A stretch of DNA of 64,000 nucleotides, taken from positions 450,928 to 514,927 of the forward strand of contig OZ244856.1 of the NCBI GenBank assembly GCA_965220995.1. Reading direction: 5' to 3'. The notes under the pieces were generated by a model. It saw only the letters and a list, made by a program, of their open reading frames with translations, did no database searches and was not told where the DNA came from. Position 1 is the first letter of the stretch, and the number at the start of each line of letters is the position of its first letter. This DNA is from Acidimicrobiia bacterium. GTDB lineage: Bacteria > Actinomycetota > Acidimicrobiia > Spongiisociales > ZC4RG35. The position numbers and the translations under genes are program-made. Below are positions 5,144 through 64,000 of this stretch, one piece after another.

Positions 5144-5413
5144 GGTTGGGGAGTCTAATTTTTGCCGGAGAACCAAAGGCAAAGCAGTGAAAAGAGAGGC
5201 TAACCTGTGAAAACCGTGCTGGGTTTTCCCCCCAATGGGTTCCCTCCCCCGCCACCTCCTAACCGGGATCAGGGCGCGTTTGGGCTAGGCCTGGAATAGG
5301 CGCCTTTGCAGTTTATGATCCCCGGTGCGGTCCGAACGACGTCGGAGCGGGCCGCCCTGGTATTTCAGCTACCTACCAGTGTGCAACAGGGGTAGGACAG
5401 AATTCAACCCCGG

Positions 5414-6499
5414 TCAGCCGGGATTTTTCGCGGGCCGGGAAAGTTTCAGGGGCGACAGAAAACGATTGCGAGGCGCAGCCACCAGATCAACCGGCTCGGC
5501 CACCTTCTCCACGGTCACCCGATCGGCCCCGATCATCCCGCCGATGCGATGAGCCTGCGTTTCGACAGCATCCCAGCGACGGGATCGCCAAGCCGAAAAG
5601 GGCGCCACCTTAATCTCCAGCCGGCGGTCGGAGGCACCCAGATCCCAGACTCCCACCACTCTTCCACCGTCCAGCACCACCGAAGTTGCGTTGCCGAAGC
5701 GGTCGTAGGCAAAGGGATGGTGAGCGCTGTCAAGCAGGTGGTCCCGTTCCCGGTGGGCCACCATCAGGACATCCCAGACCGGCAGAAGGCGCAGACCCTG
5801 CTGCAGGCGCATCGAGCCCTCCCGGCCCCAATCCAGGCCATCTGAAGCGGCCCGGGTTTCGGCCACCGTCCACCCGGCCCACCAGCGCAGATCCGGCAAG
5901 GTAGCAGGTCCGTAGGCTGCCAGGTAGGACTCCGCCAATCGTCGCCGGGCTTCGACCTCATCAATCGCGTGGGGATCAATGTCCGGCAGCCAATCGGCCC
6001 AGCGGGCGTAGGTCAAACGGTTGGATCGCCACCCGCCGGTGGTGGCGGCCCGGACTATGCGGTACTCGGATGCCATCATGGCCAACAAGGCCCCGAAATA
6101 ACGTCCGATTCTGCGGTCCGGATCCACTCTCGCCCGCAACCCGGCGGCGGACCGCGGGCCATGGGCCAAAGATTCTTCCACCAAGGGGGCCCACCTTGAG
6201 TAGTCGTCCGCCAGGCGACGGCGATAGGCGGAACTCCAACTCTGGTTCTGACGGCGGGTGGCCGCCAGCACCACTTCCAGCAATCCCCGGGGCAAAGCAT
6301 GCACCGATCCCCGCATGGCTCGCACCCTGACCAGCGACCGGTCTGCATCCAGGGCGTGGTCGAGATAGACCATCCGGTACCCGTTCATTCTGGCCAGAGC
6401 GGAGAGGTGACAGGTCGGCGCCACGCCATAGATACCCACCGAACGACCCACCACCCTCAAGAGATCCGCCGTGCCCAATTTCAAACTGTCCACTGTCAT
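5414..6499 (-). CDS. Winged-helix DNA-binding domain protein of the YcaQ/AlkZ DNA-glycosylase-like family (DUF1006).
   Basis: 361 aa. The N-terminal region (VRAMRGSVHALPRGLL and surrounding) resembles the HTH_42/AlkZ-like fold. Family assignment is from sequence-pattern memory only. Confidence 0.5.
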   Translation of the reverse strand: MTVDSLKLGTADLLRVVGRSVGIYGVAPTCHLSALARMNGYRMVYLDHALDADRSLVRVRAMRGSVHALPRGLLEVVLAATRRQNQSWSSAYRRRLADDYSRWAPLVEESLAHGPRSAAGLRARVDPDRRIGRYFGALLAMMASEYRIVRAATTGGWRSNRLTYARWADWLPDIDPHAIDEVEARRRLAESYLAAYGPATLPDLRWWAGWTVAETRAASDGLDWGREGSMRLQQGLRLLPVWDVLMVAHRERDHLLDSAHHPFAYDRFGNATSVVLDGGRVVGVWDLGASDRRLEIKVAPFSAWRSRRWDAVETQAHRIGGMIGADRVTVEKVAEPVDLVAAPRNRFLSPLKLSRPAKNPG

Positions 6500-10141: not shown

Positions 10142-11302
10142 TCAAACGGTCACCGCCACCGGGGCCGACCTTGATTCGGCCTGGGGCGCCCGGGCGTACC
10201 CCTGCGAGTCGACCGCTCCCAACACCTTGGGCAGCAGATCGGGATCTATCCAGCGCCGGGTCTGATATGACGGATAGACCGGCAGCCGGGGGAGAAGTCG
10301 AAATCCGGCGCTCTCGGTGCGGCGGCGCAGTTCCTCGAGATGAGGCCAGGGCGCCTCCGGATTCACCCAGTCGATCGTGAGCGGAGAAACCCCACCCCAA
10401 TCATTGATTCCCGCTCGAAGGTAAACCTCATAACTCTCGGTGAGGTTGGGAGGGACCTGAATGTTCATCTCGGGGCCCATTATCCACCGGGCCAGGGCCA
10501 CCACCCGCATGAACCAGGACGGAATCGGCTCGGCGTCGAGCCGCATGGGAGTGTTGTATTTGGCTCGAAAATTCTGGACTATGACTTCCTGGATTTGGCC
10601 ACCGCTGCGGGCCATCTCGGCCAGAGCCGCCAAAGAATCCACTATTTCTCCCGAGTTTTCCCCGATCCCCACCAGGATGCCGGTGGTGAAGGGAATCCGC
10701 AACCGCCCGGCGTCCTCTATAACCTGCACCCGCACCGACGGGACCTTGTCGGGGCAGTTGAAGTGCGGCATGCCGGGCTCCAAAAGACGGGGAGAGATGT
10801 TTTCGAGCATCAAACCCATCGACGGATTGGAAGGGCGAAGCTCCCGCAACTGGGACAGGGTCATGACACCCGGGTTGGCATGGGGAAACAGGGCCGTCTC
10901 CCGGTTGACCATCTCGGTCATCCGCCGGGTGTACTCCAAGGTCGTGTCACATTCCTGCTCGTCCAGGAACCTCCGCGCCGCCGGCCAGCGCTCCTCGGGC
11001 CGATCGCCCAGGGTGAACAGCGCCTCGGTGCAGTGGTGAGCCTCCCCGGCCCGGGCAACGGCCAGCACCTGTTCGGGAGGCATGAACATCCCGCCTCCGC
11101 CCGGCGGCTGAGCGAATGTGCAGTAGGTGCAGGAGTCACGGCACAAGGTGGTGAGAGGCACGAACACCTTGCGGCTGTAGGTGATGGTTCTGCCCTTGCC
11201 CTCATCCCGCAGTCGGCCGGCCTCGGCAAACAACGGTTCGGCCGACCGCCCCCCCTCCAAATAGGCAATCGCCAGGTCCCGATCAAACGCCGGATGGGTC
11301 AT
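10142..11302 (-). CDS. cofG: FO synthase subunit CofG (7,8-didemethyl-8-hydroxy-5-deazariboflavin synthase, radical SAM).
   Basis: CRDSCTYCTF radical-SAM motif near the N-terminus. 386 aa, similar to CofG and the FbiC N-terminal half. It sits 163 nt upstream of cofH on the same strand in a different frame. Confidence 0.75.
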   Translation of the reverse strand: MTHPAFDRDLAIAYLEGGRSAEPLFAEAGRLRDEGKGRTITYSRKVFVPLTTLCRDSCTYCTFAQPPGGGGMFMPPEQVLAVARAGEAHHCTEALFTLGDRPEERWPAARRFLDEQECDTTLEYTRRMTEMVNRETALFPHANPGVMTLSQLRELRPSNPSMGLMLENISPRLLEPGMPHFNCPDKVPSVRVQVIEDAGRLRIPFTTGILVGIGENSGEIVDSLAALAEMARSGGQIQEVIVQNFRAKYNTPMRLDAEPIPSWFMRVVALARWIMGPEMNIQVPPNLTESYEVYLRAGINDWGGVSPLTIDWVNPEAPWPHLEELRRRTESAGFRLLPRLPVYPSYQTRRWIDPDLLPKVLGAVDSQGYARAPQAESRSAPVAVTV

Positions 11303-23672: not shown

Positions 23673-23846
23673 GTGCAGCCCGGTTCCTGTTTCCCCGATC
23701 TGTTCCTGTCCCATTCCCTGAATTAAGGAAAGCGGGTGTGACAGGTCAAGCACTCACCGGAGTTTCTCGGTGGAACGCATACCGGCGGCCACCGGCGCAA
23801 TCAGCCTTCTCCCCCCGACAGGGATACCGGATAGGGGCCGGGCGGC

Positions 23847-24113
23847 AATCTGTGAAATCAGACACTATGTCGCGAAACCGCCCCCGAAATTCCTGTCCCG
23901 AGGGCCCGCCCCCGCCACCACCTTTCCTGGGGTCGGGACGCGAATCCACCATACAGAACGAGGATTTCGTATTCCCAACAATATGGTCCCTGCGGCCGGT
24001 CTGGACGACGTCGGAACAGACCGGGAGGTGCTTGACTCCTATCACTATGTGACACCCGGGAGACAAAGTCAAGCCAAGAGCCACCCTGTTTTTCGCGACC
24101 CTCCCCAATCACC
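23847..24113. repeat. Copy A of a conserved ~268-nt intergenic structured element; candidate ncRNA or MITE-like repeat.
   Basis: About 90% identical to 63256..63524 in the same orientation. Shared ends: aatctgtgaaatcagacactat at the left and ccctccccaat at the right. Terminal inverted repeat GTCGCGAAA / TTTCGCGAC. Internal hairpin CCGGTCTG...CAGACCGG is identical in both copies. A second hairpin keeps its stem but has a different loop sequence in the two copies. Confidence 0.6.
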
Positions 24114-24168
24114 TATCCACGCAGTCTCTAAGAAACCCCGGCATGTCGGTTATCCGCTTGGCTCCCGG

Positions 24169-32297: not shown

Positions 32298-33269
32298 TCA
32301 GGCGGTTTTCCCAAACATTGAAAGCTGCTCCGGCCGGGAGGAATCACCTTCTGAGAGTCCTTTGCCATCCTGGTGCGGGGGATGCAGCATTGCCTCCAGT
32401 TCGTCGACGGATCGGATGGGTACCGCGCCCCGCTTTTCCAGCGTCTCATTTCCCGGGCCTTCTCCCGCTCCCCTCCAGACTCCGACCCGCAGACCTCCTT
32501 TGAGAGCCTCGGTCGCCCCCGACCATGTGCCTCCCTTGCCCGTCTCGCTGGCCACTGCCACCGTGAGGTTGGACAAGGCGTAGATAATCTTGTTCCGTCC
32601 CATGGCGTTCCATACCCGGAAAGGGGCCTTGGGACTGTAAGGAGTACACATGACGGCGCGCTCCTCGTGGATTGCTCTGCGCACATCGGGGCTTTGCAAC
32701 CCACGCATAAACGACCCCGCCAGGACGCCGATGATGGTTCCTCCTGCCTGTATGGCGGCGTTCATAGCCAGTTGATCCACCCCACGCGCTCCGCCGGAGA
32801 CCACCGGATAGCCGAGTTCCACTGCCTTCCCCGCGATGCCCCTGGCCGCTTCCGCCCCCTCGGGGGAGACATCACGGCTGCCCACCACCCCGATACCGGG
32901 CTGATCAAGCAATCCAAAAGCTCCGGCGGCGTAAATCAGGGCGGGGGCCTTGGGTCCGAGTCGACAAACCAGACGCTGGGGAAAATGGTCATCAAAATGG
33001 GTAACTGTCCGAATACCGGAATGTTCGAGTTGCTCCAATTCGAAAGCCATGACTCTCACCCGATCCAGCAACACCCATACCCGGTCCGCCAGCGCATCGG
33101 ACAATCCGTAATCCCTCACCATCTCTTTCCGGTCCTGCCCCAACAACGCGCCAGGCCGCGGGCAGGTCTCTAGAAGTCGCCAGTACTCCCGCGCCGAGAG
33201 AGGCCGTACCTCCTTGCCATGCATCCGGCTCACCAAGAGCACCGTGGCAGCCGAGTCGTCATTCCTCAC
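32298..33269 (-). CDS. DprA/Smf-like (SLOG/DNA_processg_A fold) protein; candidate PsyrA-like antitoxin partner.
   Basis: GIGVVGSRDVSPEGAEAARGIAGKAVELGYPVVSGGARGVDQLAMNAAIQAGGTIIGVLAG, the DprA Rossmann signature. Overlaps the upstream RecQ-PRTase gene by 4 nt. Confidence 0.6.
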   Translation of the reverse strand: MRNDDSAATVLLVSRMHGKEVRPLSAREYWRLLETCPRPGALLGQDRKEMVRDYGLSDALADRVWVLLDRVRVMAFELEQLEHSGIRTVTHFDDHFPQRLVCRLGPKAPALIYAAGAFGLLDQPGIGVVGSRDVSPEGAEAARGIAGKAVELGYPVVSGGARGVDQLAMNAAIQAGGTIIGVLAGSFMRGLQSPDVRRAIHEERAVMCTPYSPKAPFRVWNAMGRNKIIYALSNLTVAVASETGKGGTWSGATEALKGGLRVGVWRGAGEGPGNETLEKRGAVPIRSVDELEAMLHPPHQDGKGLSEGDSSRPEQLSMFGKTA

Positions 33270-35329
33270 CTGATTGATCTCCCGCTGGCATCAGCCAAGG
33301 CAAAGGGGTAAACCGAACCTGATCCGGCCAGAAGCAACTCACTACCCACGGCTGTCAGGGTCCACCTGGAATCAACGACATCATCCACGAGCAACACCGG
33401 ACCTCTGGGAACCGCCCCCACGATCCTAAATGCGTCTCGGACGTTCCGATGTTGTTGATGGCTGTTTTGCATAGTTTTCTGTGGCTCCGTGTCACGGACC
33501 TTTTCAACCACATTCTTATAAGGAACTCTCAGCAATGCCGCCAAACGAGCCGCAAAGTCCTCAACGAGGTCTGGATTTCTCAACGATGGAACAGAGGCAG
33601 CCCAGGCCGGAAAAGGCTGAGGCGCCCACCGATTTCTGATCAGATCGGCGGCGGCCGCCACCAATCGCTCATCAAAGCGCCCTTCCGATTGCTTGCCCGA
33701 ACGGACGAGAGTCCCCCAACCACCATCCTTCCAGACCGCCAGGGCCCGTCCTGGTTCGACGAGTTGGTCCTTGGCGATTCTCTTCCGGTTCGGCCATTGT
33801 TTGCGTGGTTCGATGTTCAGATCGACCCCTCGAAGGAACTCGATAACCCTTTGGACAACGGCGGGATCAAGACGAATTGCAAGGCTCAAACCAGTGCAGT
33901 TATCACAGATGCCACACGGATTTGCTATCAGGTCGTCGAGGTAGGAGCCCAAGAGTTGCATACGACAGGCGCCGGTTCGTATGTACTCGTTCATCTGCTT
34001 TTGCTCGACCCTCCGCTGAGCAGTAACCAACTCAACCCGGCGCCGATCGAATTTCCACCCTTTCAAAGTTCTTCGCCAGACAGAGCCTTCCTGTTCAACC
34101 GCCCCCTCAACCTCGAGATTCTTCAGCAGCTTCTCGAGTTGACCCCAACCGATATTCAACGACTGGAACAACTCGTCCCGAGACACCCCTTCCGTCTTCT
34201 CCTCCAGCAAGGCCACCACCTGCTCGGCTTGTGGTGCGGCCGGGAAGGCCCCCTGGATGAAGTAATCCTGAATGTCGGTGTCTTCTCCACCGCGCAACAG
34301 TATGCCCCAAGACTCGTTCAGTGAACGGCCCGCCCGGCCCACTTGTTGGTAATACGAGATCGGCGAACCGGGTGACTGGTAGTGAATTACAAAGGAGAGA
34401 TCAGGTTTGTCGAAACCCATACCGAGGGCTGAGGTTGCAACCACCACCTTCACCTGATTGGACAGGAGAGCCTGTTCAATCCCAACCCGGTCTTCAGAGT
34501 GCAAACGACCCCAGTATGAAACCGCCGAGATTCCAACTGATGACAGCCATTCCCCTACCCGCTGTGCATCTCTTACGGTGAGGCAATAGATCACCCCTGT
34601 TCCATCCAATCTTGACAGTTGGTCGGCCAGCCATGCCAGACGCTCCGCCTGTGATGGGATCTCGAGGACATGCAACCGTAGTCCGCGACGCGCCAAGGTT
34701 CCCCTGACAGTGGATAACCCTGAACCCAGTTGGTCAACGATGTCTCCTACGACGCGGTCATTGGCCGTCGCCGTGCAACACAGAATCGGGACACCGGGAA
34801 GGAGCCTCAGAACGCGGGTGATCCTCCGGTAGTCAGGCCGGAAATCGTGGCCCCAGTCGGAAATGCAATGTGCTTCGTCAATCACCAGCAGCCCGCTTCT
34901 CCGCAGGATGACCGGCAGGAGTTCGCCCCGGAACTTGCGATTGGCCAGCCGCTCCGGCGATATCAATAACAGGTCAACCGCATCGGCATATAGTTTCTCT
35001 TCCACCTCCGCCCACTGTGCCGGGTTAGAACTGTTGATAGTCTCAGCCCTGACACCCATTCGCTCTGCAGCTTCAATCTGATTGCGCATCAGGGCCAACA
35101 GAGGGGAAATCAGGAGGGTAGGCCCCGCACCTCGCGTCCGGAGCATTCGGGTTGCAATAAAGTACACCGCGCTTTTGCCCCACCCGGTTCGCTGAACCAG
35201 GAGAACCCGTCGGAGTTCTGCAACCAGTCCGCGGATCGCGTCGAGTTGACCCTCCCGGAAGTCAGTTGTCGGATCCCCGGTCAGCTTGCGCAGAGAATCC
35301 AGAGCTTCCGAAGCAAACTTGTCACTCAT
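33266..35329 (-). CDS. RecQ-family DNA helicase fused to a C-terminal ComF/GntX-type phosphoribosyltransferase domain; candidate PsyrT-like toxin/defense helicase.
   Basis: Helicase motifs: Walker A TGWGKS; motif II DEAHCISDWGHDFRPDY. RecQ Zn-finger CRMQ...CGICDNC. C-terminal PRTase signature RNVRDAFRIVGAVPRGPVLLVDDVVDSRWTLTAVGSEL. Local GC is clearly lower (about 48-55%) than the surrounding DNA. Confidence 0.65.
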   Translation of the reverse strand: MSDKFASEALDSLRKLTGDPTTDFREGQLDAIRGLVAELRRVLLVQRTGWGKSAVYFIATRMLRTRGAGPTLLISPLLALMRNQIEAAERMGVRAETINSSNPAQWAEVEEKLYADAVDLLLISPERLANRKFRGELLPVILRRSGLLVIDEAHCISDWGHDFRPDYRRITRVLRLLPGVPILCCTATANDRVVGDIVDQLGSGLSTVRGTLARRGLRLHVLEIPSQAERLAWLADQLSRLDGTGVIYCLTVRDAQRVGEWLSSVGISAVSYWGRLHSEDRVGIEQALLSNQVKVVVATSALGMGFDKPDLSFVIHYQSPGSPISYYQQVGRAGRSLNESWGILLRGGEDTDIQDYFIQGAFPAAPQAEQVVALLEEKTEGVSRDELFQSLNIGWGQLEKLLKNLEVEGAVEQEGSVWRRTLKGWKFDRRRVELVTAQRRVEQKQMNEYIRTGACRMQLLGSYLDDLIANPCGICDNCTGLSLAIRLDPAVVQRVIEFLRGVDLNIEPRKQWPNRKRIAKDQLVEPGRALAVWKDGGWGTLVRSGKQSEGRFDERLVAAAADLIRNRWAPQPFPAWAASVPSLRNPDLVEDFAARLAALLRVPYKNVVEKVRDTEPQKTMQNSHQQHRNVRDAFRIVGAVPRGPVLLVDDVVDSRWTLTAVGSELLLAGSGSVYPFALADASGRSIR

Positions 35330-35503
35330 TGATTGGGGACCCCCGGATAGCTGATTCTCAGTTGCTGTGTATAGGCAAGCCTATTTGAAGGGTGTGACAT
35401 CGAGCCCGGACCCGATAAGCACCCAGCACCTCCCAAGCACACCTGTATTACAAACGCGGCTTGCCGTCGGGGCTGCCGCAGCGCAGGGCCCGGGGCGCAA
35501 CTC

Positions 35504-44327: not shown

Positions 44328-45869
44328 GTGGCAGGCCTCCGGGCCGCTGGGACCCGGCGTTTGTTCGGTGTGCCGGGAGGAGGCCCAAACCTGCTGAAGG
44401 TGGGCGCCGCCGCCGAGCAGGGCATTCCCTTTGTTCTCTGCCACAGCGAGACGGCCGCGTGCATCGCCGCCTCGACTTACGGGCTGTTGACCGACACGGT
44501 GGGGACGGCGGTGGTCACCCGGGGGCCGGGCGTGGCGTCGGCCGTGAACGGAGTTGCCCAGGCCACCTTGGACAAGCAGCCCCTGGTGCTGGTGGGAGAC
44601 ACCGTTTCGCAGGCCGACCGCACCTGGGTGGGACACCAGAAATTCGACCAACCGGCAGTGATGCAGCCGGTCACCAAATGGAGCGGCACGGTGGGCCGGG
44701 ACGGGACCGCCCGAGCGGCGGAAGCGGCCGGGCGGCTGGCCACGGCCCATCCCCAGGGCGGGGTACACATCGACATGGACAGCAATATCCCAGGGGACAT
44801 GCCTCCCGATGCCCCGGCTGTGACCGATGGCGGGGCCGTTCCGGAGGCGGTGCGGAAAATGGTGGCCCGATCCTCCTTTCCGCTGTTGATCCTGGGAACC
44901 GGGGCGCTTGGATGGATCGGGGAGGTGAGGAAGGTGGTGGCCGCCGCCGGATGCCCGGTTCTCACCACCTATCACGCCAAGGGCCTGATCGACGAGACCA
45001 CACCCCTTTTCGGAGGGCTGTTCACCAGTTCCTCCTTGGAGGCGCCGCTGCTGCGAGCCGCAGATCTGGTTTTGGCGGTGGGAGTCGATCCCGTGGAGCC
45101 GCTTCCCCGGCCTTTCCGATACGAGGCGCCGGTGGTGGAGATCAACCCCTGGCCCCAACCGCTCCGGTTTTTCCCCGGGCGGCGCCGGGTTGAGGGGCCG
45201 GTGGGTCCGATCCTCGGGTCTCTGGCCGCCGATCTGGCCGAACATCGATGGGACCCCGACGCCGGCCGAACGGCATGGCAGGCTGCCCGGCGGTCGCTGT
45301 GGGCCGACGGACCGGGTTTCACTCCCCACCAGGTGGTGCAGGAGGTGGCGAAATGGAGCGCCCGGCAAGAGGATGCCACGGTGACGCTGGATGCCGGCGC
45401 CCACTTTCTGGTGGCCATGCCTTACCTTCCGGCCACCCTGCCCCGCCGGATCCTGATCTCCAACGGTCTCTCCACCATGGGATACGCCCTCCCCGCCGCC
45501 CTGGGCGCCGCCCTGGCTCGTCCGGAGACACCGACCGTCTGCCTGACCGGCGACGGTGGGTTGAGCATGGTCCTGGCCGAGTTGGAGACGGTGGCCCGGG
45601 CCGGGGCGGACGTGACTGTGGTGGTGTTCAACGACGGGGCCCTGACCCTCATAGAACTCAAGCAACTGGCCGGCCAGGGGGGACCGCAGGCGGTGCGTTA
45701 TCAACCCATCGACTACGCCCGGGTGGCTCGATCCTGCGGAATGCCGGGGGTGATGGCCGAAAACCAATCGCAACTGGCGGCCGCCCTGCGCGGACCTCGA
45801 CCCCGCCTGATCGACGCCCGCATAGATCCAACCGCCTACCGAACCGTGATCGAAGCCGCCCGGGGATGA
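44328..45869 (+). CDS. Thiamine-pyrophosphate-dependent enzyme (acetolactate-synthase-like family).
   Basis: N-terminal pyrimidine-binding domain (LFGVPGGGPNLL...FVLCHSETAACIAAST), a middle domain, and a C-terminal TPP motif GDGGLSM...N. GTG start. Confidence 0.7.
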   Translation: MAGLRAAGTRRLFGVPGGGPNLLKVGAAAEQGIPFVLCHSETAACIAASTYGLLTDTVGTAVVTRGPGVASAVNGVAQATLDKQPLVLVGDTVSQADRTWVGHQKFDQPAVMQPVTKWSGTVGRDGTARAAEAAGRLATAHPQGGVHIDMDSNIPGDMPPDAPAVTDGGAVPEAVRKMVARSSFPLLILGTGALGWIGEVRKVVAAAGCPVLTTYHAKGLIDETTPLFGGLFTSSSLEAPLLRAADLVLAVGVDPVEPLPRPFRYEAPVVEINPWPQPLRFFPGRRRVEGPVGPILGSLAADLAEHRWDPDAGRTAWQAARRSLWADGPGFTPHQVVQEVAKWSARQEDATVTLDAGAHFLVAMPYLPATLPRRILISNGLSTMGYALPAALGAALARPETPTVCLTGDGGLSMVLAELETVARAGADVTVVVFNDGALTLIELKQLAGQGGPQAVRYQPIDYARVARSCGMPGVMAENQSQLAAALRGPRPRLIDARIDPTAYRTVIEAARG

Positions 45870-46205
45870 GGTTGGCCGAAACTCGCGAAAAATCCGCCGG
45901 TCCGTGGGTTGACTTCTGTCACACACCTGTTACATAGTGGTTGGATCAAACACCCAGGACGGTCCGCTCCGGCGTCGAGTGGACCGTCCGAAGGTCAGAC
46001 AACTCAGGAAGTCGCTGGTTCCGGCTGGACAAAGCCTTCCTGATCAACGGCAAGGTGGATGGTGGGGGAGGGGCCCGAAAGGGCGGGAAAGCTGGGAGTC
46101 AGTTTTCGCGAGATAGTGTGTGATTTCGCGGATGTTGGCCGTGACGGGACGCCACCGTCCCCGATGGGTAATCTCCCCTGCAAACCAATGAGAGGAGGTA
46201 TCTCC

Positions 46206-61456: not shown

Positions 61457-61485
61457 TTGACGAACATATTTGGTTGTGCCATAAT
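61457..61485 (+). promoter_or_regulatory. Sigma-70/SigA-like promoter for the cimA leader.
   Basis: TTGACG, a 17-nt spacer, then CATAAT. The predicted TSS is about 7 nt before the leader-peptide ATG, so the leader is near-leaderless. Confidence 0.5.
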
Positions 61486-61498
61486 GGGCGGTGTGACA

Positions 61499-61537
61499 AT
61501 GATCGACTTACGCCGCTCCATCATTATCGACCCATAG
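61499..61537 (+). CDS. Attenuator leader peptide MIDLRRSIIIDP (three consecutive Ile codons).
   Basis: 12-codon ORF between the promoter and the terminator hairpin. ATC-ATT-ATC run. A longer in-frame form starts at ATG 61484. Confidence 0.5.
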   Translation: MIDLRRSIIIDP

Positions 61538-61563
61538 GCGTCGGCCGCCCAAGCCTGCGCCAG

Positions 61564-61590
61564 AGCCCTCTGCCCGGCAGAGGGCTTTTT
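61564..61590 (+). terminator. Intrinsic terminator/attenuator hairpin upstream of cimA.
   Basis: GCCCTCTGCC(c)GGCAGAGGGC followed by TTTTT, ending 28 nt before the cimA ATG. Confidence 0.6.
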
Positions 61591-61617
61591 CATTGCCCCG
61601 ACCAATACCCACCAGAC

Positions 61618-63237
61618 ATGAGCAAAACCCTTCACTCCGATCTTGAGATTTATGACACGACCCTGCGTGACGGCGCCCAGCAGGAAGGCATTTCTCTCAC
61701 GGTTTCCGACAAACTGAGGATTGCCTCGCTGCTCGACTCGCTGGGCGTCCACTACATCGAAGGCGGATGGCCGGGCGCCCTTCCCAAGGACAACGAGTTC
61801 TTCGCCCGCGCCAAGACGGAACTTTCCCTCTCCAACAGCCGACTGACCGCTTTCGGGTCGACCAGGCGGCCGTCCCGGAGGGTTGACACCGATCCCCAGT
61901 TGCGCTACCTGCTGCAAGCCCAGACGGAGGTGATCTGCATCGTCGGAAAATCCTGGGATTATCACGTTCGAGAAGCACTGCGCTGTGACCTCGACGAGGG
62001 GATCCGCATGGCGGGGGAGTCGGTGGAGTTTCTGAAATCGCACAACCGGCGGGTGTTCTTCGACGCGGAGCACTTCTTTGACGGGTACCGGGCCAATCCC
62101 GAATACGCCCGGGCGGTGATCACCGCCGCCTGGGAAGCGGGCGCCGAGCGACTGGTGCTGTGTGACACCAACGGGGGCGCCCTGCCGTCGGAGATCAACC
62201 GCGTCATCGCCGAACTCGGTGAGACCCTGCCCGCCGACGCGCTGGGTGTGCATTTCCACAACGACGCCGGGTGCGCGGTCGCTTCCTCGTTGGCTGCGGT
62301 GGCGCAGGGGGTAAGACAGGTTCAGGGATGCATCAACGGCTACGGCGAGCGGACCGGTAACGCCGACCTCTCCACGGTCATACCCGATCTGGTTTTGAAA
62401 ATGGGCGTCCCGGTGGTGGACACCCGGCGCCTTTCCCGGATTTCTTCGGTTTCCCATCACATAGCCGAAGTGGTCAACATCACGCTCGACCCTCACCGGC
62501 CTTATGTGGGGGCGTCGGCCTTCACCCATAAAGCGGGTCTCCACACCTCCGCTTTGGCCCGCCGACCCGACGCCTACGAGCACGCCCGCCCGGAGTTGGT
62601 GGGCAACAGCACCCGAATGGTCATATCCGAACAAGCCGGAAGAGCCGCCGTGATCCGAAGAGCCGCCGCCCTCGGCCTGGACGTGGACCAGGACGCCGCC
62701 GCCTCGGTGCTGGAACAGGTGAAGGAAATGGAGCATCGCGGCTACCAGTTCGAAGCGGCGGACGGATCGTTCGAGTTACTGGTGAGACGGGTCCTCGGAC
62801 GGCGCCGGGACCTGTTTTCGGCCGCAGGCTTTTCGGTCTCCATTCACCGCCAAAAAGGTCAGGACGAGATTCGGTCTCAGGCCGAGGTGGAGGTGAAGGT
62901 GGGAGATGAGATTCACCGAACCACCGGAGCGGGAGTGGGGCCGGTCCACGCCCTGGACCAGGCCCTCAGGCAGGCTCTTGTGTCGGCCTTTCCGCAACTT
63001 GAGCGCCTGCGGCTGGTGGACTACCGGGTCCGGGTCCTTGATTCCTCCGACGGCACCAGCGCCACGGTGCGGGTCTTGATCGAGACCACCGACGGCGAAG
63101 AATCCTGGGGAACGGTGGGAGTTCACCCCAACATCATCGAAGCCTCCTGGGAAGCCCTGTCCGACGGCCTGACGGTGGGCCTGCTCCGGCTGGGAGATTC
63201 CAAAGAAGCCTCCGGTCCTCAGACGGACAGCGGGTAG
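61618..63237 (+). CDS. cimA: (R)-citramalate synthase (LeuA-family, CimA type).
   Basis: N-terminus IYDTTLRDGAQQEGISLTVSDKLRIASLLDSLGVHYIEGGWPGALPKDNEFF is typical of the citramalate-synthase/LeuA-related clade. 539 aa with a C-terminal regulatory domain. The Ile-codon attenuator upstream fits a role in isoleucine biosynthesis. Confidence 0.65.
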   Translation: MSKTLHSDLEIYDTTLRDGAQQEGISLTVSDKLRIASLLDSLGVHYIEGGWPGALPKDNEFFARAKTELSLSNSRLTAFGSTRRPSRRVDTDPQLRYLLQAQTEVICIVGKSWDYHVREALRCDLDEGIRMAGESVEFLKSHNRRVFFDAEHFFDGYRANPEYARAVITAAWEAGAERLVLCDTNGGALPSEINRVIAELGETLPADALGVHFHNDAGCAVASSLAAVAQGVRQVQGCINGYGERTGNADLSTVIPDLVLKMGVPVVDTRRLSRISSVSHHIAEVVNITLDPHRPYVGASAFTHKAGLHTSALARRPDAYEHARPELVGNSTRMVISEQAGRAAVIRRAAALGLDVDQDAAASVLEQVKEMEHRGYQFEAADGSFELLVRRVLGRRRDLFSAAGFSVSIHRQKGQDEIRSQAEVEVKVGDEIHRTTGAGVGPVHALDQALRQALVSAFPQLERLRLVDYRVRVLDSSDGTSATVRVLIETTDGEESWGTVGVHPNIIEASWEALSDGLTVGLLRLGDSKEASGPQTDSG

Positions 63238-63255
63238 GGGCCGTACGGCCAAGAG

Positions 63256-63524
63256 AATCTGTGAAATCAGACACTATCTCGCGAAAACACCCCTAAAATT
63301 CCTGTCCCGAGGGCCCTTCCCCCGCCACCACCTTTCCTGGGTCGGGACGCGAAATCCGTCATATATTGAACGGGATTTCGCTTTCCCGAGAGTATGGTCC
63401 CTGCGGCCGGTCTGGACGACGTCGGAACAGACCGGGAGGTGCTTGACACCTATCACTATGTGACACCACGGAGACAAAGTCAACCCATCGGCCACCCTGT
63501 TTTTCGCGACCCTCCCCAATAACC
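63256..63524. repeat. Copy B of the conserved ~268-nt structured element; candidate ncRNA or MITE-like repeat.
   Basis: Same orientation and ends as copy A. Perfect hairpin GCGAAATCCG...CGGGATTTCGC. Lies between the convergent 3' ends of cimA and an ABC ATPase gene. Confidence 0.6.
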
Positions 63525-63721
63525 CACCCTCGGCAGGCTTTGGCTGAGATGCAGGTTGAGGATGGGCGCCAACAGCCCGCTCAACCCGGGAAGACGGAAT
63601 GCATCACCATTCCCATAGCTGCGGCACTCTTGCCTTTCCCGTTACCGGTGTTGACTACCACTATGGAGGGTGCCCCGCTTGACATCACGACGGCGGGGAT
63701 CTTCTGTACGGGGCGCCTTGC

Positions 63722-64000
63722 TCATTGGGAACCGTTCCTGAACGGGACTATCGCCAGCCCTCCATTGACCCTGACCACCTCGACGTCGGCCTGGTAGAAG
63801 TCCCTGATGTAGTTGGCTGTCAATACATGCACAGGGGATCCGGCCACAACTATCCTGCCGCTCGCCATCATCAGCAGGCGATCGGCGAACTGCCCGGCCA
63901 GGGTCAGGTCATGCATGGCGGTGATGATGGTCATCGGACGCTCGGACCGAAGGTAGCCGATCAACCCGAGCGCCTTCTGGCCCTGGCCGATGTCCAGCCC
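63722..64000 (-). CDS. ABC transporter ATP-binding protein, C-terminal part (iron-siderophore/cobalamin FecE/BtuD-like); 5' end is beyond the window.
   Basis: LDIGQ (D-loop region), H-loop MHDL, and C-terminal pattern ADRLLMMASGRIVVAGSP. The reading frame is open to the window edge. Confidence 0.65.
   Translation of the reverse strand, partial: GLDIGQGQKALGLIGYLRSERPMTIITAMHDLTLAGQFADRLLMMASGRIVVAGSPVHVLTANYIRDFYQADVEVVRVNGGLAIVPFRNGSQ

Follow-up and report, generated by a model that had tools for sequence, protein, structure and literature searches.

A repeated element at the 3' end of cimA

The window, by which we mean the whole stretch of 64,000 nucleotides that was analysed, carries a cimA gene on the plus strand (61618-63237) whose product has the Pfam domains HMGL-like, HCS_D2 and LeuA_dimer and a database homologue of 539 aa reported to be 100% identical. 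Facing it on the minus strand is a gene for an ABC_tran ATPase whose stop codon lies at 63722; FecCD and Peripla_BP_2 genes come next. Between these convergent 3' ends, in the context that an earlier note on this DNA had described, lies a repeated element that we call copy B. The earlier note had placed it at 63256-63524, which is too narrow: in an alignment of seven similar copies, combined with matching of the terminal inverted repeats (TIRs), the homology reaches from ~63219 to 63543, or 325 nt. At this full length the element, which is non-coding and oriented on the minus strand, is matched by nhmmer with E-values of ~1e-85 to 1e-106. There are no tRNAs in the 64,000-nt window.

Copy B had been taken for the same element as a second stretch of the window, copy A, and the repeat is real. 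A repeat search paired 63256-63353 with 23847-23944 (83%) and 63373-63532 with 23962-24121 (90%), and blastn aligned B with A at 86-87% identity (86.5-86.8%) over ~305-310 nt, with E ~1e-100 and several indels of 1-6 nt. Copy B is an old copy with degenerate ends, even though it falls in the alignment group of seven that we call young. It is wedged between cimA and the ABC operon, which was itself acquired at a variable junction, and there is no gene for it to regulate in cis.

The variability of this junction can be seen among relatives. In L013, L008 and L009 cimA directly abuts a NUDIX gene, and the spot between the two is empty (for example, L013:11602-11623). In L007 and L014 it is occupied by an NYN-like gene, intact or decayed (L007:11599-12435 and L014:8873-9691). 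The source junction (window 63238-64000; L006:11620-15400) carries the repeat together with the ABC operon of FecCD type, upstream of which no cobalamin riboswitch was detected.

The product of cimA, citramalate synthase, feeds isoleucine synthesis, and the region upstream of cimA (61457-61617) looks, from its sequence, like an isoleucine attenuator. It contains a promoter-like TTGACG-17-CATAAT, a small ORF (61484-61537) encoding MGGVTMIDLRRSIIIDP, which includes a run of Ile codons, and a hairpin, GCCCTCTGCCCGGCAGAGGGC, followed by TTTTT at 61565-61590; the cimA ATG is at 61618. Rfam gave no match at 61457-61617.

Copies in the window and in related genomes

The element is more than the pair A and B described earlier, in which both the true ends and two further copies in the same window had been missed. 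Sensitive blastn added copies C and D, for a total of four. Copy A (316 nt, 23816-24131, minus strand) lies between the 3' end of lepB and the start of yraN/UPF0102. Copy C (~45850-46185, plus strand), inverted relative to A and B, is old and shares ~56% identity with young copies; it stands upstream of a PNPOx-like gene, and at its 5' end it overlaps the stop of a TPP-enzyme gene. Copy D (~5146-5461, minus strand), old and degraded, is upstream of an amidohydrolase gene, and its 5' part gives the last ~15 codons and the stop of an AlkZ-like gene. We describe all copies on the 'F' strand, which is the minus strand of A, B and D and the plus strand of C.

The ENA assembly ERZ25072299 is ~99% identical to the window's genome, and A, B and D are common to both. 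Six further copies were found in the ERZ25072299 strain at three loci: E (L010), G, H, I and J (L016), and K (L017). They were reached through spurious ORFs, two from a multi-frame protein query (P0121, P0124) and two from an exhaustive HMMER search (P0125, P0126). A scan with a conserved 23-mer brought in one copy, L001, from another genome, the Acidimicrobiia MAG OY762464.1. We therefore compared 11 copies, treating A, B, E, G, H, I and K as 'young' and C, D, J and L001 as 'old'. Young copies are 316-326 bp long and 79-89% identical to one another, as measured for the pairs among A, B and E.

The family thus has at least 11 dispersed copies: ten came from ~133 kb sampled in a single species, the eleventh from a different genome. 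Excluding the three copies that had been used for fetching their loci, the density is ~5 per 100 kb. Extrapolated from this sampled density, a genome of ~3 Mb would hold ~150 copies, and the family would make up roughly 1.5-2% of it. As a repeat would lead one to expect, short-read (Logan) contigs stop within copies A and C.

Searches further afield returned little. Four relatives whose cimA is 83-88% identical (L007, L008/L009, L013 and L014) have no copy in ~70 kb. The earlier note had named a lack of conservation in related genomes as evidence that would tell against its interpretation, and at the cimA locus the element is indeed not conserved. The conserved 23-mer had 0 matches in JGI metagenomes, where a second motif gave chance matches only; the second motif had 0 matches in IMG/VR. 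In the genome-contig collection the 23-mer found one real locus, L001, and one chance match. The consensus had no blastn match to plasmids and phages, and among 1.84 billion representative proteins the true relatives were three spurious ORFs only, all from other copies. The family is undescribed, while the kind of element is an ordinary one, a small and probably mobile repeat of one Acidimicrobiia group.

Copies are 80-89% identical to one another and ~99.7% identical between the two strains, and to judge by these values there is no sign of current or recent mobility. The strains do differ elsewhere: positions 33189-35376 of the window are ~2.1 kb of extra sequence relative to the 99%-identical ENA strain, with a 687-aa RecQ-like helicase ORF (33266-35329) beside a DprA-like ORF (32298-33269). 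The sister strain has a ribonucleotide reductase gene that contains, by Pfam, an intein with a LAGLIDADG endonuclease domain (L010:279-4922). At L016:8680-9795 an HNH/DUF222 endonuclease gene lies between a Bmp gene and copy G; it interrupts an apparent Bmp-ABC transporter operon and may be a second mobile insertion at that spot.

We considered whether A and B could be the attL and attR of a 39.4-kb island. They are only 86% identical, copies occur both between and outside them, and the interval contains the core genes rplS, trmD, lepB, guaA/guaB and trpS; we rejected the idea. Echoes of the motif beside A (23733-23765) and beside B (63650-63680) were not significant against shuffled sequence.

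Ends and target site

Homology among the seven young copies halts sharply at 5'-TTAGAG on one side and CTCTAA-3' on the other. These termini form imperfect TIRs of ~20 bp, TTAGAGCC.GCGCGGGTGGG ... CCTACCCGCTATCCCTCTAA, with the end motifs GAGCCKGCGCGGGTRGG ... CCYACCCGC; set against the reverse complement of CCTACCCGCTATCCCTCTAA, the consensus TTAGAGCCTGCGCGGGTGGG agrees at 14/20 positions, and in copy H the count is 13/16. The outermost bases of the TIRs are TTAG/CTAA, and TA, TTA or TTAG is found at the junctions. Three young copies out of seven, G, H and K, have TA at both junctions; in the other four (A, B, E and I) it is degraded. In copy H the flanking tetranucleotide TTAG is a perfect direct repeat. 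From these junctions we infer a target duplication of TA, TTA or TTAG, with the proviso that TA is palindromic, so that a junction TA could be the duplication or part of the TIR itself.

In copy B the F-3' TIR occupies 63219-63238 (minus strand; the plus strand reads TCAGACGGACAGCGGGTAGG), and homologous sequence forms the termini of A, E, G, I and K, where no gene stops as cimA does. The F-5' TIR (63523-63543, minus strand) is degenerate, reading CCAAAGCCTGCCGAGGGTGGG on the F strand where the consensus is TTAGAGCCTGCGCGGGTGGG. It also contains a local hypervariable patch: 63523-63536 and L006:11917-11931 differ between strains by four substitutions and a 1-nt indel in ~13 nt, and the ~290-nt core of B differs by one substitution.

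An empty site differing solely by the element was not obtained among the relatives fetched. The two strains share A, B and D, and the cimA-NUDIX junctions of the four relatives are without the element, but the source also gained the ABC operon there. No autonomous insertion sequence (IS) with matching ends was found in ~290 kb, nor was any other TIR-like sequence at four or fewer mismatches; an ISL3 in L006 was considered as the parent and rejected, its ends being unrelated.

Copy E has flanks of its own kind. It is bordered by an imperfect direct repeat of 36-60 nt (L010:9897-9959 and 10277-10317), GCCCCrGsGCGCGG..CCGGCTGArGG..TTTCGGTTAG, which starts immediately downstream of the stop codon of the preceding gene. 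Its length far exceeds a normal target duplication, and a duplication of 2-4 bp does not explain it.

Stop codons and neighbouring genes

Copy B supplies the last five codons and the TAG stop (63235-63237) of cimA, which ends ...CCT CAG ACG GAC AGC GGG TAG. The CAG at 63220-63222 is in frame with cimA and is aligned to the terminal TAG of the consensus; the C-terminal tails of cimA in relatives all differ. Other copies meet genes in the same manner. The terminal TAG on each side of copy K is the stop of an IclR gene and of a convergent Na_Ca_ex gene, the right end of copy H provides the TAA of a convergent gene (225 aa), the terminal TGA of copy I is the stop codon of ispF, and copies C and D each contain the last codons of their upstream gene.

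We tabulated the neighbours on both sides. On the F-5' side, 8/10 copies follow a co-directional gene (binomial estimate p ~0.055). On the F-3' side a co-directional gene begins 20-140 nt beyond five of the 11 (A, C, D, G and L001); the other six (B, E, H, I, J and K) point into the 3' end of a convergent gene. Counting both sides, 14/21 element ends face the 3' end of a gene. The five downstream genes are functionally unrelated (UPF0102, PNPOx-like, amidohydrolase, ABC ATPase and thioredoxin-like), and those downstream of A, C and D appear, by inspection of the sequence only, to carry -10 elements or ribosome-binding sites of their own in the interval that separates the start codon from the repeat.

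Interior of the element

On the F strand the interior consists of an arm with an A-tract, a promoter, a hairpin (P2), a variable centre, a G-rich tract, a conserved block and a GC hairpin, in that order. The arm belongs to an inner inverted repeat and occupies 63499-63509 of copy B (minus strand; F strand TCGCGAAAAAC); it is kept in all copies covering the site, and its A-tract ends 16 nt upstream of the -35 hexamer, a position like that of an UP element. A sigma-70-like promoter, TTGACT-17-CATAGT, follows at 63455-63483 (minus strand), with a predicted start at ~63447-63449 directed toward cimA. Scanning for promoters found one sigma-70-like site each in A, B and C, at the same position in the element and on the F strand, and also in G, H, I and J; E and K have it by sequence, and in D it is degraded. 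Across copies the form is TTGACT, 17-18 nt, CATAGT or CATATT. Within 20 kb of L016, 4/5 promoter-like matches fall in its four copies. Both hexamers are retained in the old copies C and J, whose spacers have changed in sequence and length.

Further along, P2 (63407-63435, minus strand) is a conserved hairpin in which CCGGTCTG and CAGACCGG pair around CCGACGTCG. Its form across copies is CCGGTCYG..CCGACGTCG..CRGACCGG, with two covarying pairs, T-A to C-G and C-G to A-T or G-C. The centre holds a long hairpin in the young subfamily (63342-63389, minus strand), TCGGGA..GCGAAATCC / GGATTTCGC..TCCCGA, and is variable in old copies. On its 3' side on the F strand is the G-rich tract (63318-63336, minus strand; F strand GGAAAGGTGGTGGCGGGGG, C-rich on the plus strand), which reads GGTGGTGGCGGGGG across copies. 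The most conserved block (63261-63288, minus strand; F strand GTTTTCGCGAGATAGTGTCTGATTTCAC) contains the second arm of the inner inverted repeat and a T-run, after which comes a segment able to pair with the predicted 5' end of the RNA; L001 agrees with the family consensus at 26/28 positions of the block. Near the F-3' end, as read from the sequence, is a small, semi-conserved GC hairpin without a U-tract (63239-63250, minus strand; GGCCGTACGGCC).

In the old copies (C, D, J and L001) the internal blocks are conserved at 53-93% and the TIRs at 35-60%. [quoted passage not shown]

Coding potential and RNA structure

The earlier note had proposed a codon-position test and had judged the small minus-strand ORFs to be non-coding, a judgement with which our results agree. 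Substitutions counted by codon phase were 63/68/73 (chi-square p=0.59), with no periodicity, and the ORFs diverge through indels, mostly of 1-2 nt, that switch the frame between copies. The ORFs called in the copies (P0121-P0126) have no precomputed Pfam match. We also rejected a type I toxin-antitoxin system or small peptide, there being no conserved or hydrophobic ORF.

Evidence for RNA structure was weak. At gathering thresholds Rfam had no family in the window, and B with its flanks gave only chance microRNA matches (E>2). Minimum free energy z-scores came to -1.2 and -1.0 when the whole element was folded and ranged from -1.1 to -2.0 for the predicted transcript (-0.3 to -2.0 over all), which are unremarkable values that lend little to the description of the element as 'structured' in the earlier note. 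When six copies were folded from the predicted start with RNAalifold, the 5' end GGAGUCAaGCAC paired with GUGUcUGAUUUC in the most conserved block. Substitutions in this closing helix in L001 (four), C (two) and E (one) all keep the pairing via G-U, and the helix pairs at 10-11/11 positions on the F strand versus 7-9/11 on the other. In the proposed helices 91.9% of cells are paired, with a covariation score of 0.198 compared with 0.145 for shuffled alignments; 7/500 of the latter reach the observed score. The consensus fold of 11 copies differs from that of six, copy D has a few wobble changes in favour of the opposite strand, and the choice of strand by counts of G-U versus A-C mismatches is confounded, the F strand being rich in G+T.

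A scan for terminators found a terminator-like hairpin and T-run on the F strand in G and I and on the plus strand in D, and no such site in B, A or C. A TnpB/IscB guide RNA or an IS110 bridge RNA was considered and set aside: no matching protein remnant occurs in the copies, and the region 3' of the conserved block is not hypervariable among young copies.

Nature of the repeat

We put the probability at about 65% that copy B is a decayed copy of a ~320 bp MITE-like, non-autonomous transposable element that multiplied in one Acidimicrobiia lineage. This reading is based on its size and TIRs, on the dispersal of its copies, on the lack of any in those regions of relatives that were examined, and on the TA-containing termini that sit on stop codons. 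The young copies, at 316-326 bp, are under the ~600 bp limit of a MITE and show no coding signal, and the terminal inverted repeats and many dispersed copies expected of one are both present. Of the three alternatives offered by the earlier note, the mobile element is accordingly the best supported, given the at least 11 dispersed copies and the lack of a copy at the cimA gene of four relatives. The best reading is that the element carries a promoter and possibly a small RNA, and that it is neither a riboswitch nor a terminator; the earlier interpretation as a whole is borne out in part.

Movement of such an element would depend on a DDE transposase supplied in trans, probably of the IS630 or the IS5/IS1031 type, that duplicates a TA-containing target of 2-4 bp. 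In a genome of 63-65% G+C, or 60-68% at the widest, TA would be rare outside stop codons, and targets would be concentrated there. Because the TIRs begin with TAG, landing on a stop codon would regenerate the stop of the neighbouring gene and do little harm. Copy B may have landed on the cimA stop in this way, with the TAG later mutating to CAG; cimA would then read five more codons to the next in-frame TAG within the repeat. The minus-strand promoter of B, followed by the hairpin, the G-rich tract and the T-run, probably yields a non-coding RNA of ~150-210 nt, which would run toward the 3' end of cimA, antisense to it.

A tentative alternative, to which we give clearly less weight, is that the repeat is in the first place a gene for a small RNA, read from the minus strand in B, whose promoter and ~150-210 nt RNA act in trans and are under selection, with the inverted ends only a vehicle of spread or incidental. 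The two ideas would meet in a mobile small-RNA gene, a transposable cassette whose promoter and RNA of that length are kept by selection, which we regard as a possibility of the same lesser order. Selection on such a cargo would account for internal blocks that persist longer than the inverted ends do, even in a second genome. The promoter hexamers kept in the old copies C and J while the spacer changes, the closing helix compensated by G-U, the covariation above shuffled alignments and, in two copies only (G and I), a terminator-like hairpin with a T-run on the F strand all point the same way. Against it are the unremarkable z-scores, the lack of an Rfam match, the disagreement of the 11-copy and 6-copy folds, a G-U excess that is partly an effect of composition, and those wobble changes in D that favour the other strand. 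The trans-acting small RNA proposed in the earlier note thus gains a conserved promoter, while the structural evidence for it stays weak.

The other readings are much less probable. It is improbable that the repeat is a bidirectional terminator, another proposal of the earlier note, or an insulator module separating convergent or tandem genes: the preference for positions after co-directional genes and facing gene 3' ends, along with the terminator-like hairpins in D, G and I, would suit such a role, but the same bias is equally explained by insertion at stop codons, B, A and C have no terminator-like site, and 320 bp with an internal promoter far exceeds what a terminator needs. Still less probable is a cis-regulatory leader or riboswitch for a downstream minus-strand gene, which the earlier note had rightly thought unlikely. 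Its placement 20-140 nt upstream of a co-directional gene holds for A, C, D, G and L001, but the remaining six copies face the 3' end of a convergent gene, so that for B the idea is already contradicted; the downstream genes are unrelated to one another, those of A, C and D appear on inspection to have a -10 element or ribosome-binding site of their own, and Rfam recognizes nothing. Least probable of all is that the minus-strand ORF, 81-180 aa long depending on the copy, encodes a small protein. Gene callers did call it in several copies (P0121-P0126), but indels of 1-2 nt shift its frame, the even phase counts argue against coding, and its only true relatives in the protein collection, like the ORFs themselves, come from copies of the repeat and lack a Pfam match.

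Comparison with known repeats

The MITE-like family can be set beside several classes of small bacterial repeats. Bacterial MITEs in the literature span a like range of properties: TIRs, TA targets (RUP with IS630-Spn1), putative internal promoters and, for Correia/NEMIS, effects on nearby transcripts (PMC2229807). Among actinobacteria, MIRUs are intergenic repeats found in operons in one preferred orientation, overlapping the stop and start codons of the flanking genes; they are tandem-repeat units of 40-100 bp without inverted ends or a promoter. The present family shares with them the overlap of flanking codons, and differs in being one 320-bp unit bounded by TIRs. ERIC/IRU and REP/BIME sequences of enterobacteria are transcribed extragenic repeats at gene 3' ends that can fold into long imperfect palindromes. 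At 127 bp for ERIC/IRU and ~35 bp for REP they are shorter than our repeat, and they show no sequence similarity to it; REPs are moved by RAYT tyrosine transposases and do not have its TIR architecture.

Correia elements duplicate TA; for our family, unlike Correia/NEMIS, a target duplication is something we infer. The Correia/NEMIS elements of Neisseria resemble it as small, dispersed, non-coding repeats with TIRs and, when our density is extrapolated, with a similar share of the genome. They are 105-155 bp long as against ~320 bp here, belong to another phylum and have no sequence similarity. Correia elements have TIRs, putative internal promoters, a site for IHF and effects on neighbouring transcripts through RNA hairpins (PMC2229807). 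In our family the promoter is internal and unidirectional, whereas Correia promoters are formed at the ends, and no IHF site was identified. RUP of Streptococcus pneumoniae is a MITE mobilised by IS630-Spn1 that uses TA-containing targets and has stop codons in the reading frames (PMC2229807). Our family would likewise be non-autonomous, with putative TA-containing targets. The partner IS of RUP was identified through the similarity of its TIRs, and none was found for our family in ~290 kb; RUP is also only 107 bp long, compared with ~320 bp, and has no reported internal functional motif.

Implications

Recognizing the family removes a false lead, that of a riboswitch or structured regulator of cimA. 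It also explains spurious ORFs of 80-180 aa and breaks in short-read assemblies in this Acidimicrobiia lineage. Gene ends have been reshaped by it: the C-terminal codons of cimA, the TPP-enzyme gene and the AlkZ-like gene derive from the element.

Were the internal promoter active, antisense or read-through transcription would reach dozens of genes, and the family would offer a useful natural example of regulatory signals being spread by a repeat. Should the repeat be a mobile small-RNA gene, the lineage would have, by extrapolation, about a hundred or more co-regulated copies of one RNA, many of them directed antisense into convergent genes, cimA among them, from the 3' end, and the TAG-initiated ends would permit landing on stop codons without truncating or extending host proteins. 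With its stop-codon-compatible ends, the family would neatly illustrate how an element that targets TA can persist in a genome of high G+C content.
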